64,000 bases of DNA from Clostridiales bacterium (GCA_016288155.1 JAEEYP010000058.1:1364-65363), one strand, 5' to 3'; shown: positions 38,039-40,690, numbered from the stretch's first letter. Notes: generated from the letters alone by a model not told the origin. Numbers and translations: made by a program.

Positions 38039-38206
38039 TCACTTTTTCGAGCCGCTGCTCGCCTTCGTCGCCTTCTTCTGCGCGGTCCGCTTCTCGGCGC
38101 CCTTGATCACGTCCTCGTTGGCGGCGTCCATCGCGCGGCAGTAGGCCTCGAAATCCGCTTTAGTCTTCGGGTTGTAGGAGCTCGGCTTCTTCGTGTCTTC
38201 CCTCAT
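38039..38206 (-). CDS. Small Lys-tailed protein (partner 2)
   Basis: 55 aa, GGAGG RBS. Confidence 0.7.
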   Translation of the reverse strand: MREDTKKPSSYNPKTKADFEAYCRAMDAANEDVIKGAEKRTAQKKATKASSGSKK

Positions 38207-38233
38207 GTCGTTGCCTCCGTTCAGCACTTTATA

Positions 38234-39013
38234 TTATTTTACCACGATCACGGCGCTTCTGTCAATAACATTCTGATAGGTCGATGACGCGGGACCGCCG
38301 GAAATCGCGTTATAGCCCATTGCCAGCGCGTAGATGGAGACGTTTCCGCCCCGTCCGCGGGCAAACGAACCCACCGCGGCGGCAAACTTGGGATGGCTTC
38401 GTTCAAACGATGCCGCCTGCCGTCTCAGGTCGTAAAAGTCAATCACGCGCGCCGTCTGCGGATTGTAAATAGCCGTGATGGTCGTACCACTGCCGTATCC
38501 GGTGTTTCCGCCGCCGTTCATGTCAAAATACGTGCCCGCGCCGGTGACCTGTCCGCCGTACTTGCCGCCGATGTAATTGAGCTCGGAATACTTGAATGTG
38601 TCGGCGATCTGCTGAGCTGAATACGGCCCGTTGCTGTTCACACTGCGCGCCATGATCTGACTGCGCGGAATATTGTTCTGCCTTCGGAACTGATCAAACT
38701 GCGCCTGATCCATGACCGTCGGCGCGCCGTTCAGCCCGACCTGATAGACGAACTTCTGCGTCTGATCCGGCACGTCGTTCAGGAAGTTCGGCATGTCCAC
38801 GTTCCGCGAGGCGATCACCGCCTGCGCCAGCTCGTCATCGGTCATCGCCGCGATCTGCGCGAGCGTCGCCGTTGCCTGTGTAGCCGTCTGCAGCTCGCCG
38901 TTCGGCGTCAGGTCCACCGGTTGTGCGGGCGGCTGCAGGGGGTTCAACGGCCGGAGTCTGCCTGTCGGGGTCGGCGTCGCCGTCAACCCGCTGTTACTGC
39001 CTCTTCCTCCCAT
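38234..39013 (-). CDS. MGGRG-leader protein 2, putative ADP-ribosyltransferase-fold domain
   Basis: MGGRGSNSGLT; ARSV, GAGTYF, GYNAI, VIDRS pattern. Confidence 0.6.
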   Translation of the reverse strand: MGGRGSNSGLTATPTPTGRLRPLNPLQPPAQPVDLTPNGELQTATQATATLAQIAAMTDDELAQAVIASRNVDMPNFLNDVPDQTQKFVYQVGLNGAPTVMDQAQFDQFRRQNNIPRSQIMARSVNSNGPYSAQQIADTFKYSELNYIGGKYGGQVTGAGTYFDMNGGGNTGYGSGTTITAIYNPQTARVIDFYDLRRQAASFERSHPKFAAAVGSFARGRGGNVSIYALAMGYNAISGGPASSTYQNVIDRSAVIVVK

Positions 39014-39025
39014 GCCGACCTCCGA

Positions 39026-39181
39026 TCACTTCTTTTTCGCGGGCGTAGAAGGCTTCTTGCCGTTCTTGGCGTTCCACTCGTCGACGACCTTCTGCTGCTC
39101 CGACGTGTTCTTGCTGACGTTCGCCACCGCGCTTGCGGTAAAGCGATCGACGTCCTTGCGGTTCAGTTTTGTGCTTGCCAT
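39026..39181 (-). CDS. Small Lys-tailed protein (partner 1)
   Basis: 51 aa, AAGGAGG RBS. Confidence 0.7.
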   Translation of the reverse strand: MASTKLNRKDVDRFTASAVANVSKNTSEQQKVVDEWNAKNGKKPSTPAKKK

Positions 39182-39194
39182 ATCTGCCTCCTTA

Positions 39195-40046
39195 TCAGTC
39201 GACCTCAACGGTCAGAACGATCTGCTTTTGACTGCCGATATGCGCCGTGCCCTTCTGCCGGACGTTCACGCTGTTGTCGACGCGAACGCCTGTGATCTTG
39301 TAGTTCTGCCGGCCGCCGCTCGGTGCGAGAACGATCTCACCGACCGATCCGCCCGGGCCGTTGCCCGGCATCATTGCCTGTGTGCTTGCTTTGGCTTTGT
39401 ATTCGATCCGCACGGCCCGATTCACGAACGTCGCCTGCGTCTGCGCCGGTGCGTTCCTGAAGCCGTTGTACGACGTCGAGACGAGCCGTTCCTCGCCGTA
39501 TGTCTTGCCGACCAGAGCCTGCTGCAGCTGTGCCGTCGACATACGTGTGAAATCAGCGTTCCGCATACCCGACTTCTGCAGAATGTCGTTGACGAACTCG
39601 CCGTGGTCGTACCGCGTCAGGTTGGTGTTATACCCGAGATTGTGCATCGCACCCATCATGTGCCGGAACGTGTACATCTGATTCGCGTTCATGCCCGTTG
39701 TGAGAGGCTGGCCGCGTGCCGCGTTCTGCATCATCTTCCAGTTCATGTTCTGGGACATCGAATACATCGTTCCCGGCTCCGTGTCGGACCGGAGATACTG
39801 TATAGTCGCGTTGATCTGGTCCGCGGTCAGGTTCTGAGACAGGTAATAATTCCGGCCGTTATAGAGGTCATGGAACGGCGAATTATCCGTGTCGGAGAAC
39901 GCTGCGGCGTTGGCTTGCTGTGCCTGCTGTACCGTCGGCTGGACCTGCGGCGGCTGCGTCTGCATCTGAAACAGGGACGGGTTTATAGCACCGCCGCCTC
40001 CGCCGCTCGAGCCCGTCAGCCCGCTGTTACTGCCTCTTCCTCCCAT
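39195..40046 (-). CDS. MGGRG-leader protein 1, putative R-S-E ADP-ribosyltransferase
   Basis: MGGRGSNSGLT; LTRY, VSTS, GEIVL motifs in VIP2/C3-like order. Confidence 0.72.
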   Translation of the reverse strand: MGGRGSNSGLTGSSGGGGGAINPSLFQMQTQPPQVQPTVQQAQQANAAAFSDTDNSPFHDLYNGRNYYLSQNLTADQINATIQYLRSDTEPGTMYSMSQNMNWKMMQNAARGQPLTTGMNANQMYTFRHMMGAMHNLGYNTNLTRYDHGEFVNDILQKSGMRNADFTRMSTAQLQQALVGKTYGEERLVSTSYNGFRNAPAQTQATFVNRAVRIEYKAKASTQAMMPGNGPGGSVGEIVLAPSGGRQNYKITGVRVDNSVNVRQKGTAHIGSQKQIVLTVEVD

Positions 40047-40690
40047 GATTGTGCACTCTCCTGCCTGTTTTTACTGCGCCACCGCTCTTCTGCGAACGAT
40101 CGCACATGAATGATATTTCCGCCGCACTCTTCCGGAATTATCCCGTAGAACAGCACGCACGACGGCCTGAGACGGTCCATCATGCGCTTGTACCCGCGGA
40201 CGAACAGACGTGACGCCCGCTCATCTCCCTGCGTGCCGACGCTGGACACCGCGACCATTGAATCTGTCGGATCCCCATCAAAACACCAGTCGAACGATTC
40301 TTCGTCCGACCAGCCTATGGTCGGAATCACGCGGATCCCGTGTTCCTGCCAGTACGCGCCAAGCCAATGCCGCCGGTACGAATTGTAAATCTGGACCGCC
40401 TTCGGCCAGTCTGTGTACATCGAAAAGTCCGGCGTACAAACCGCCTGAAACTTGGACAGCATGTTCAGATACGCGTCCGGGTTGTCCCATAGGCGGACAA
40501 ACTGGTAGTCATCAACGAAAAAATGAATGCCGTGCCTCTCCGGCTCCTCGCACGTACGTGCATAGTTGAAGCTGATCCAGTTGTCCGCCCGGTACTCCGC
40601 CCGGGATACGGGCGGGATCCCGTATCTTCCGACACCGTCAACATGCAGCCGGTTCAGGTTTTCGCAATCGCGTGTGAATCTGTAATTCAT
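40016..40690 (-). CDS. DUF4417-domain protein
   Basis: HFFVDDYQF, TPDFSMYTD.P, QIYNSYR..W, VIPTIGW, WCFDG, VAVSSVG. Confidence 0.88.
   Translation of the reverse strand: MNYRFTRDCENLNRLHVDGVGRYGIPPVSRAEYRADNWISFNYARTCEEPERHGIHFFVDDYQFVRLWDNPDAYLNMLSKFQAVCTPDFSMYTDWPKAVQIYNSYRRHWLGAYWQEHGIRVIPTIGWSDEESFDWCFDGDPTDSMVAVSSVGTQGDERASRLFVRGYKRMMDRLRPSCVLFYGIIPEECGGNIIHVRSFAEERWRSKNRQESAQSWEEEAVTAG

Follow-up and report, generated by a model that had tools for sequence, protein, structure and literature searches.

Genetic coupling of DUF4417 with polymorphic phage cargo genes that share an N-terminal GGRG leader

Organization of the locus

A stretch of 64,000 nucleotides (nt) of DNA from a Clostridiales bacterium (GCA_016288155.1, JAEEYP010000058.1:1364-65363), in its whole length called the window in this work, carries at positions 38,039 to 40,690 a prophage gene module which consists of a gene for a protein of the DUF4417 family, two genes for larger proteins, here called cargo 1 and cargo 2, which begin with the same leader peptide MGGRGSNSGLT, and a small open reading frame (ORF) after each cargo gene. 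The genetic coupling of DUF4417 with leader-bearing cargo genes, seen in viral contigs and in species-representative genomes, is the main finding reported here, while the function of the module is discussed as a proposal. All genes are located on the minus strand and are transcribed in the order regulator, DUF4417, cargo 1, small ORF 1, cargo 2, small ORF 2, terS and terL. The features of the module, with protein lengths in amino acids (aa), are as follows.

40016-40690, minus strand: DUF4417 gene, 224 aa, proposed reader/carrier of the GGRG leader (PF14386, E 2.7e-55)
40013-40047, minus strand: leader repeat copy A, cargo 1 codons 1-11 (MGGRGSNSGLT) plus one base (repeat search, 97% identity to copy B)
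39195-40046, minus strand: cargo 1, 283 aa, with leader, Gly/Gln/Pro-rich linker and C3/VIP2-like ADP-ribosyltransferase (ART) domain (ORF, fold model)
39026-39181, minus strand: small ORF 1, 51 aa from ATG (60 aa from an upstream TTG), candidate cognate partner/immunity protein of cargo 1
38980-39014, minus strand: leader repeat copy B, cargo 2 codons 1-11 plus one base, reference copy in the repeat search
38234-39013, minus strand: cargo 2, 259 aa, with the same leader, Pro/Gln-rich linker and a conserved domain without family
38039-38206, minus strand: small ORF 2, 55 aa from ATG (62 aa from GTG), candidate cognate partner of cargo 2

The start of cargo 1 (40046) overlaps the 3' end of the DUF4417 gene (40016) by 31 nt. 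Both leaders are encoded by a direct repeat of 35 bp in which 34 of 35 positions are identical; an earlier interpretation of the window, in the following the sequence-only reading, had pointed out this repeat, and its coordinates and its single mismatch were reproduced. The repeat did not arise by chance, since hundreds of relatives start with the same peptide. Equally, the view that the two cargos are otherwise unrelated holds, as BLASTP between them aligns the leader region only (E 3e-4). The genome from which the window derives possesses one DUF4417 gene, and the two leaders of the window are its only verified MGGRG ORF starts, with six pattern matches left aside; a third MGGRG-like site on contig C61 was discarded as it lies out of frame within another gene. 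No Rfam family was detected at the leader sites, and searches with PADLOC and NCBIfam gave no match for any protein of the module.

Association of DUF4417 with leader-bearing genes across genomes

The association of DUF4417 with downstream MGGRG genes, proposed from this one locus, was investigated in 160 DUF4417 loci, of which 80 come from viral contigs and 80 from species-representative genomes. In the forward direction, ATG-initiated ORFs of at least 60 aa which start exactly with MGGRG were counted in the 157 loci with at least 600 nt of downstream sequence. Such an ORF started between -150 and +450 nt of the end of the DUF4417 match in 112 of the 157 loci and within 3.5 kb in 116, the number per locus being none in 41 loci, one in 83, two in 25, three in seven and four in one; the background amounted to six MGGRG-ORFs upstream on the same strand in 648 kb and to none on the opposite strand. 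In the reverse direction, viral contigs were scanned with a degenerate DNA pattern of the leader. Among the matches listed, there were at least 242 to the leader pattern, at least 204 of which opened complete ORFs of at least 60 aa, and 122 of the 127 leader ORFs with enough flanking sequence had an adjacent DUF4417 gene on the same strand, located upstream in 79 and immediately downstream in 43; among the listed pattern matches that opened no ORF, DUF4417 was present beside one of nine. The association thus stood in both directions. DUF4417 and the GGRG cargos are genetically coupled, and a functional coupling of the two is very likely.

The arrangement of the genes is tight. The DUF4417 stop overlaps the start of the first cargo in 67 of 129 loci, and a gap of 0-30 nt is present in 28 more. 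In 94 of 138 loci, DUF4417 is followed by a terL gene with Terminase_3 domain, the start of which lies at a median distance of 1.45 kb, as assessed by clustering and Pfam, which replaced a regular-expression count of terminase P-loops (42 of 138) that was dropped as too crude. Among 50,697 phage records, DUF4417 matches occur in 506, including 385 of Mycobacterium, 57 of Streptococcus and 41 of Gordonia phages. In cluster A mycobacteriophages, gene 1 encodes DUF4417 and gene 2 overlaps the end of gene 1, followed by a small ORF, an HNH gene and terS; gene 2 of NicoleTera starts with MGKRGGSGGGG and is annotated as a VIP2-like ART toxin, and gene 2 of Roksolana starts with MGGRGGGGGPG and is annotated as a metalloprotease. 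Equally, the ORF after DUF4417 in the Streptococcus phages phiNJ2 (L003), Javan91 (L401) and Str01 (L413) truly starts with MGGRGASSGMS and overlaps the DUF4417 end; the deposited annotations of these three phages let the gene start at an internal Met, by which the leader is cut off. In mycobacteriophage Faith1 (L400, 2432-3484), the DUF4417 protein gp115 and the MGGRG protein gp116 (117 aa, phrog_6170, with a 'TLYHRTS' motif) are encoded inside a tRNA array with nine tRNA genes before and three after the pair, so that the link between DUF4417 and the leader is independent of terminase proximity.

Unusual architectures were also encountered. The largest tag-bearing protein seen is encoded by a 1020-aa ORF in an Anaerolineae metagenome-assembled genome (L162), which starts with MGGRGASSGNG approximately 137 nt after DUF4417. 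In L309, L338 and L375, approximately 232 open codons precede MGGRG in frame, and the end of DUF4417 is no more than 5 nt away from it; DUF4417 and cargo are apparently joined here by read-through or fusion, with the leader intact.

The leader as an N-terminal GGRG peptide

In 149 distinct ORFs which start exactly with MGGRG, the leader continues with the consensus [S/G/A]-x-S-G-[I/L/M]-[S/G/T]. Across 112 distinct genes, 44 versions of the 15-nt string encode the MGGRG peptide, with use of all Gly codons and of both Arg codon families, and this diversity of DNA strings argues for selection on the peptide and not on the DNA. Equally, the identity of the leader DNA within a locus (13.1 of 15 nt) is not clearly above the identity between loci (12.5 of 15 nt), so that recurrent gene conversion at the leader, which had been considered, is not supported in general.

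Inspection of seemingly tag-less loci led to a refinement of what the tag might be. ORFs after DUF4417 at such loci start with MNLQFF-GGRG, MVENLQFF-GGRG, MRMNLQYH-GGRG and similar sequences. Among the N-termini of 164 cargos, 123 read M-GGRG and 24 carry an (x)[LIVM]Q[FYL][FHY] prefix, mostly of the NLQFF type, with six using another start codon immediately ahead of GGRG and 11 showing other short prefixes. The same body families occur with both types of start, with 25 M-GGRG and seven prefixed members in cluster 1 and three and six, respectively, in cluster 5. The NLQFF-type prefix matches the cleavage motif of the ribosomal protein L27 protease Prp, given as MLxx(D/N)LQ(F/L)F'A(S/H)KK in the available part of its description (PMC9405229). 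The host of the window possesses the corresponding components, since on contig C91 (L164) L27 starts with MIRIGLQFF-AHKKG and a 119-aa Prp-like ORF is located between the L21 and L27 genes. In the window itself, both cargos start with M-GGRG and have no Prp-type prefix. As relatives place a Prp-type site directly before GGRG, the comparison suggests that a free N-terminal GGRG, rather than MGGRG, is the functional element, and two routes, removal of methionine by methionine aminopeptidase (MetAP) or cleavage by Prp, would expose the same N-terminus. The proposal that MGGRG is a tag stands with respect to the leader peptide, which is kept across relatives, and is revised with respect to the start methionine.

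The parallel to proteins processed by Prp, L27 itself and the capsid and scaffold proteins of phage 80alpha as far as covered by the accessible text of the sources (PMC9405229, PMC9261936, PMC5744158), consists in a similar (x)NLQFF-type prefix of the cargo relatives; unlike in L27, the predicted cleavage would expose GGRG instead of A(S/H)KK, and the cargos of the window would need only removal of methionine. A lax scan for GGRG also caught the Walker A motif GGRGSxKS of terL, which was removed by the requirement of at most 25 open codons upstream, a filter that also dropped a few true cargos, for example, in L141. The Walker A loop of terL, located 1.2-3 kb downstream of DUF4417, reads GGRGS-x-KS in L030, L038-L042, L045, L084 and others, similar to GGRGS-x-SG of the leader; this resemblance may be due to chance.

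Polymorphic cargos and their small partner ORFs

The sequence-only reading had assumed interchangeable effectors behind the leader, and the wider sample agrees with this assumption. The 164 cargo bodies fall into 38 BLAST clusters, which include ARTs and a glutamine deamidase. Cluster representatives match ADPrib_exo_Tox (E 2.2e-30, 1.5e-8 and 2.9e-6) and Gln_amidase, a papain-fold glutamine deamidase toxin family (E 5.2e-18), in Pfam, weak sub-threshold matches point to Ntox24 and an anthrax-LF-like family of metalloproteases, and the majority of representatives match no family. The largest cluster, cluster 1, comprises 37 members of approximately 130 aa which belong to phrog_9479, a family without assigned function.

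With E <= 0.001 as limit, 474 of 2092 candidates count as relatives of cargo 1. In a set of 17 relatives that were read, P0084 and P0087 are DUF4417 fusions without N-terminal leader, and 11 of the other 15 start exactly with MGGRG and three with the near variants MGGRS, MGSRG and MGRGS. Cargo 1 itself has no Pfam match at E <= 0.1 and belongs to cargo cluster 3, the representative of which (L068:5623-6309) matches ADPrib_exo_Tox with E 1.5e-8. Sequence searches of PDB chains with cargo 1 and its profile gave nothing useful, and tblastn against the 50,697 phage records gave no match. An AlphaFold2 model of cargo 1, built on an alignment of 40 sequences, has a predicted local distance difference test (pLDDT) score of 86.3, with residues 1-27 disordered at pLDDT <50. 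Foldseek with this model returned as top matches the C3 exoenzyme C3bot (1g24_A, E 2.5e-10, prob 1.00, target template modelling (TM) score 0.64), VIP2 and CDTa. The R...STS...E motifs, which had been noticed in the order of VIP2 and C3 enzymes, are real and conserved in the family alignment of 40 sequences, with R145, T191, S192 and E237 invariant and S190 conserved in at least 90%. Judged by modelled fold and motif, cargo 1 is an R-S-E-type (C3/VIP2) ADP-ribosyltransferase, with the catalytic role of R145, STS and E237 deduced from order and motif and not from residue-level superposition. With C3 exoenzyme, VIP2 and CDTa, cargo 1 has the fold and the order of R, STS and E in common; unlike these enzymes, it has a single Glu in 'GEIVL' instead of an ExE/QxE pair and carries the GGRG leader with linker and a small partner ORF.

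Cargo 2, which has 416 relatives and belongs to cargo cluster 2, had more tentatively been considered PARP-like on account of a GxGxYF/GYxAI pattern. The pattern is present as GAGTYF/GYNAI, yet no ART family match arises from it, and the PARP-like assignment is not upheld. Neither cargo 2 nor its profile matches Pfam, PHROG or PDB sequences, none of 40 family members matches PARP or any ART family in Pfam at E <= 0.1, and the 50,697 phage records contain no tblastn match to cargo 2. One relative shows sub-threshold matches to PARP (0.012) and ART-PolyVal (0.013). As a weak lead, a protein atlas places cargo 2 with 0.84 to a cluster in which 22% of the members are ART-PolyVal. What is left is a local profile similarity to the cargo 1 family in hhalign (prob 91% over 46 columns), with V/M at the position of the catalytic Arg.

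The small ORFs also turn out to be a regular component. Cargos of at least 180 aa are directly followed by an ORF of 30-130 aa in 64 of 66 cases, and none stands directly before another cargo. There are 18 small-ORF clusters of two or more members, and each of them accompanies one cargo cluster only. This one-to-one pairing is, at the level of gene comparison, the pattern of cognate neutralisers, in line with the suggestion of the sequence-only reading that the small ORFs are cognate partners of the cargos, and an immunity-like role of the small ORFs seems reasonably likely. Both small ORFs of the window have GGAGG ribosome sites and, as noted before, Lys-rich tails, which are seen in the translations. 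BLASTP detected no similarity between small ORF 1 and small ORF 2, and small ORF 1 has no family match in Pfam, PHROG, PADLOC or NCBIfam. With an invariant leader, 38 body clusters that comprise toxin families, and cargo-specific small ORFs, the DUF4417/GGRG system appears to have the general layout of polymorphic toxins.

DUF4417: family, fold, predicted leader binding and fusions

The DUF4417 protein of the window matches PF14386 with 187.1 bits (cut-off 28.9) over profile positions 5-182 of 183. The family is large, with 4157 cluster representatives at E <= 0.001 among 1.84 billion and 1102 at 1e-30. An AlphaFold2 model based on 62 sequences shows a compact alpha/beta barrel (pLDDT 92.3, predicted TM score 0.85). 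With VIA-align, this model is closest to archaeosine tRNA-guanine transglycosylase (TGT) 1iq8_A (Z 9.7), QTRT2 6fv5_A (Z 9.4) and DpdA 7ui4_A (Z 9.2, root mean square deviation 3.4 A over 155 residues), with TGT 3unt_A at Z 7.6 and generic triosephosphate isomerase (TIM) barrels at Z <= 8.0. Equally, Foldseek against the BFVD viral models lists phage queuine tRNA-ribosyltransferase proteins (prob 0.90-0.99, TM 0.40-0.46) right after three DUF4417 relatives. TGT and DpdA (PDB 1iq8, 6fv5, 7ui4, 3unt) are thus the best structural matches with two aligners and two libraries, and a pocket at the C-terminal face of the barrel is seen in these enzymes and in the DUF4417 model. Unlike the enzymes with 373-577 aa, DUF4417 with 224 aa is too short for the whole TGT architecture, its predicted ligand is a peptide, and no 7-deazaguanine synthesis genes were seen beside DUF4417.

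The hypothesis that DUF4417 reads the leader was addressed by complex prediction with DUF4417 (alignment of 62) and residues 2-45 of cargo 1 (alignment of 40). The prediction reached a score of 0.78 (runs 0.82, 0.78 and 0.78), with 0.02 for the best of three controls; the score mark is reached by 58 of 80 solved complexes and by two of 110 mismatched pairs, counts which apply only roughly to predictions with own alignments. The runs agree in at least 50% of the contacts. The predicted interface is formed by leader residues 2-10 and by DUF4417 residues 58, 61, 88-95, 126-129, 148-153, 156, 158-159, 162-163 and 166-167, positions that hold invariant or nearly invariant residues of the family, and the smallest docking errors concern Arg4, Gly5 and Ser6 of the leader with W127, S128, F163 and their neighbours. 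The co-fold thus places the leader in a conserved pocket and passes the controls, in agreement with the idea of DUF4417 as leader reader, and the leader probably docks directly in this pocket.

Fusion proteins provide a further view on the family. In-frame fusions of DUF4417 exist with ADPrib_exo_Tox (three), Gln_amidase (one) and Phage_min_cap2 (one), and with a barnase-type Ribonuclease domain in P0333 (3.1e-7) and P0348 (1.7e-10); degenerate leaders, LGGNGSQSGF, EKGMGAA and EKGGGSAGG, are found at fusion joints. Within the best 150 of the DUF4417 representatives, 13 combine an N-terminal DUF4417 with a C-terminal extension of at least approximately 100 aa, and about 35 carry an N-terminal extension of approximately 140 aa, which is ParB_N in both cases tested. 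The ParB-like extension occurs in eight of the 160 DUF4417 loci, with a GGRG cargo beside five of the eight. By analogy, DUF4417 would behave as a conserved N-terminal toxin module that mostly exists apart from its cargos and connects with them via the tag. The Phage_min_cap2 fusion, P0251 (434 aa, on a 3.5-kb contig), consists of the C-terminal half of DUF4417 in frame with the minor capsid, MuF-like domain; this single case could be an assembly or frameshift artefact.

Neighbouring genes and transcription of the module

Around the module, the following features were recorded in the window.

40849-41415, minus strand: transcriptional regulator-like gene, 188 aa, presumed late activator (phrog_36 transcriptional regulator, E 1.1e-13; phrog_248 transcriptional activator, E 2.6e-4)
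38236-38265, minus strand: sigma-70-like match TTGACA-18-TAAAAT, 11/12, with TG (consensus match only)
37431-37979, minus strand: terS (GP3_package, E 3.4e-17; phrog_606, E 4.2e-20)
35346-37288, minus strand: terL in two pieces, 36968-37288 and 35346-36224 (Terminase_3/Terminase_3C on both pieces)
36222-37041, minus strand: group-I-intron-like element interrupting terL (full-length Rfam Intron_gpI match, 34.1 bits, E 6e-6, below the gathering score of 50)
36376-36885, minus strand: NUMOD4/HNH_3 homing-endonuclease ORF inside the intron-like element of terL (Pfam)

The gene order from DUF4417 to terL had been described correctly by the sequence-only reading, unlike the late promoter placed in front of it: a scan with the sigma-70 consensus detected no sigma-70-like site upstream of DUF4417 on the minus strand. 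A late promoter is presumed from the upstream regulator gene, which has no match in Pfam or NCBIfam. The sigma-70-like match at 38236-38265 falls within the 3'-terminal part of the cargo 2 gene and shortly precedes small ORF 2; it could drive this immunity-like ORF, together with terS, independently of the late operon, including in a lysogen.

Proposed mechanism and alternative explanations

The observations can be integrated into the model of a split polymorphic-toxin system with DUF4417 as carrier or reader, which would deliver its cargos together with the genome, a model to which we assign a roughly even chance as a whole. In this model, one DUF4417 protein would be produced with one to four proteins that expose a GGRG-x-x-S-G N-terminus, generated by removal of the start methionine or, in relatives, by a cut of the host Prp after an NLQFF-type site. 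Behind the tag, a flexible linker would be followed by a swappable and often toxin-like body, such as C3/VIP2 ARTs, glutamine deamidase, metalloprotease-like and small domains. The pocket at the top of the DUF4417 barrel would take up the leader with its invariant Arg and thereby make DUF4417 the common reader or carrier of all cargos, with the cargo fused to the C-terminus of DUF4417 instead in some genomes, and the small ORF after each large cargo would encode a cognate neutraliser. DUF4417 would then link each cargo to the packaging machinery or to the DNA of the phage, and the cargos would leave with the genome and act in the next cell. DNA or packaging is considered as the common partner because terL is nearby, the DUF4417 stop overlaps the first cargo's start in many loci, ParB_N fusions exist, the fold is DpdA/TGT-like and DUF4417 is conserved across phages with different capsid genes. 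Virion or DNA co-delivery as such is a tentative element of the model, with somewhat less than an even chance.

Several observations weigh against this reading. With respect to the pairing, 41 of the 157 DUF4417 loci lack an exact MGGRG ORF downstream and 13 loci have no GGRG-type ORF even in the lax scan, the tag-less loci being mostly those of distant family members or having the cargo upstream; Gordonia phage GMA6, which encodes a ParB-DUF4417 fusion, has no GGRG ORF within 2.5 kb. Some cargo 2 relatives (P0203, P0209, P0227, P0241 and P0244) start with MASNK[ST][HR]xSGVTR instead of MGGRGSxSGLT; MASNK-starting relatives (L403-L406) are still located approximately 1 kb downstream of DUF4417, and their leader may have decayed or been replaced. 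The two small ORFs of the window, which are short and of low complexity, did not cluster with the small ORFs of relatives at E 1e-4. On the structural side, the modelled leader peptide has a low-confidence pLDDT of approximately 44, a Foldseek search of the PDB with the DUF4417 model turned up no more than weak TIM-barrel matches, hhalign of 62 DUF4417 against 19 bacterial TGT sequences gave a probability of 0.1%, and the DUF4417 profile found no TGT among PDB sequences, so that the TGT/DpdA likeness is a lead at the level of the modelled fold only and not a family membership. Furthermore, many invariant polar residues of the DUF4417 family form a pattern that fits an enzyme better than a passive carrier. 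With respect to delivery, the Faith1 pair is far from packaging genes, and the proteome of CsCl-purified Str01 virions (12 proteins) contains neither DUF4417 (APZ81899) nor the MGGRG cargo (APZ81907), with cut-offs (score >= 100, exponentially modified protein abundance index >= 0.15) at which low-copy proteins could be missed and with a database entry without the leader.

Some of these points feed directly into the explanation that DUF4417 is an enzyme and not a carrier, namely, a TGT/DpdA-like or other barrel enzyme which would modify GGRG at its alpha-amine or at Arg4, or ligate the tag to a nucleic acid or small molecule, with the modification activating, localizing or tethering the cargos. 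Its predicted pocket is lined by the invariant polar and acidic residues H56, D60/D61, D88, S90, D94, D138 and S149, base-exchange enzymes are the top fold matches, the MetAP and Prp routes imply a strict need for a free N-terminus, and a DUF4417 identity of approximately 35-60% across phages of different phyla with differing capsid proteins would be expected with a universal co-substrate; ParB_N fusions are also known for phage DNA methyltransferases, according to partial source texts. Yet a sequence-level link to TGT is missing, cofactor or base-synthesis genes were not noticed beside the module in the loci read, and the natural DUF4417-toxin fusions with degenerate leaders are explained more simply by a carrier domain than by an enzyme fused to its own substrate, which together makes an enzymatic function rather unlikely. 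The most specific version, in which DUF4417 is a miniature DpdA/TGT-like transglycosylase that accepts a protein instead of a base, with the invariant Arg or the free alpha-amine of the tag going into the base pocket and being joined to the nucleotide C1' in phage DNA (or tRNA), is speculative and decidedly improbable; if true, toxins would be tethered covalently to the genome, packaged by the terminase and received with the DNA by the next cell, which would constitute a new protein-nucleic-acid conjugation and a new route of effector delivery.

Alternatively, the cargos might not be packaged at all: their site of action could be the cell that makes them, or they could escape at lysis to serve as interbacterial toxins or host-takeover factors, with DUF4417 holding or chaperoning them via their leaders and the small ORFs protecting the lysogen. 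That cargo types and cognate small ORFs match classical polymorphic toxin-immunity pairs is compatible with such a scenario, as are the Str01 virion proteome without both proteins, the location of the Faith1 pair away from structural genes and the sigma-70-like promoter match before small ORF 2. It is nevertheless considered unlikely: neither a secretion signal nor an export gene is present in the module of the window, the typical position of the module is directly before terS/terL, one fusion of DUF4417 with Phage_min_cap2 exists, and a dedicated reader of a free N-terminal tetrapeptide would be left without explanation. The view, finally, that no link exists at the protein level and that the common 5' sequence is a nucleic-acid element for translational coupling, cassette-exchange recombination or RNA regulation, with DUF4417 as mere neighbour at an accessory hot spot, could draw on the two leaders of the window, which with 34 of 35 identical nt are closer than typical leader pairs, and on the overlap of the first leader with the DUF4417 stop in 67 of 129 loci. 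It is made highly improbable by the 44 distinct 15-nt strings for the same five residues, the barely elevated within-locus identity of the leader DNA (13.1 versus 12.5 of 15), the retention of GGRG behind a different, Prp-type prefix, the persistence of the pair in other gene order and genomic context, the complex model that passes its controls and the lack of an Rfam family at the leaders.

Relation to known systems and significance

In phage T4, the internal proteins and Alt, an otherwise unrelated set that includes an ADP-ribosyltransferase, have a short N-terminal capsid targeting leader in common, travel inside the head and are injected. Their leader is recognized by the scaffold core and is cleaved off by the prohead protease. 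The GGRG cargos resemble the T4 internal proteins in the possession of a short N-terminal leader on unrelated proteins which include an ART; unlike the T4 leader, GGRG would have to lie at the extreme N-terminus, and it occurs together with a barrel protein that is TGT-like in its modelled fold. Another likeness, as far as the accessible portions of the sources describe it, exists to the MuF-family polymorphic toxins of temperate phages (Jamet et al., 2017, PMC5576092), for which packaging with DNA and delivery to the next cell have been proposed (Zhang et al., 2012, PMC3482391). MuF toxins are equally phage-encoded, combine a conserved N-terminal module with swappable C-terminal toxins (ARTs, papain-like, metallopeptidases) followed by immunity-like genes, and are encoded near terminase and portal genes. 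Unlike in MuF toxins, DUF4417 is usually a separate protein to which cargos would be joined via an exposed N-terminal peptide, up to four cargos occur per DUF4417, and fusions are a minority; no MuF or Phage_Mu_F match was obtained for either cargo or for DUF4417. Co-delivery has also been proposed for phage ARTs encoded near head genes, in the accessible text of PMC9503650.

Phage-borne polymorphic toxins and packaged ARTs are thus known kinds. On the other hand, the DUF4417 module, the four-residue N-terminal tag, its alternative exposure by MetAP or Prp and the split design with one reader and many cargos were not found described in the searchable literature. In the accessible parts of the literature on 'DUF4417' no function is assigned, and titles and abstracts with 'MGGRG' include none on phages. 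Equally, the pairing of DUF4417 with the tag was not found in the literature on VIP2 in mycobacteriophages, MuF toxins and gp2, with subscription journals and supplementary files outside the search. The LeBron cytotoxicity paper (PMC13148394), in its available part, could not be mapped onto the DUF4417 pair.

With these findings, DUF4417, a large family without assigned function, gains a concrete and testable partner, a four-residue N-terminal tag on polymorphic phage proteins. Many cluster A mycobacteriophages have genes 1-3 at the left genome end that lacked an explanation, which the association now supplies; the VIP2-like toxin encoded there has been called of 'role unclear' (PMC7302621). 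Furthermore, phages of gut, mouth and soil can be screened by a simple rule for many new effectors and for the proteins that neutralise them. That the same N-terminus would be exposed either by removal of methionine or by the host L27 protease is unusual comparative evidence in itself. If the reader is a carrier or ligase, a trafficking principle would be added beside MuF fusions and T4 capsid-targeting leaders, and laboratory systems might exploit it to equip phage particles, on the surface or inside, with chosen proteins.

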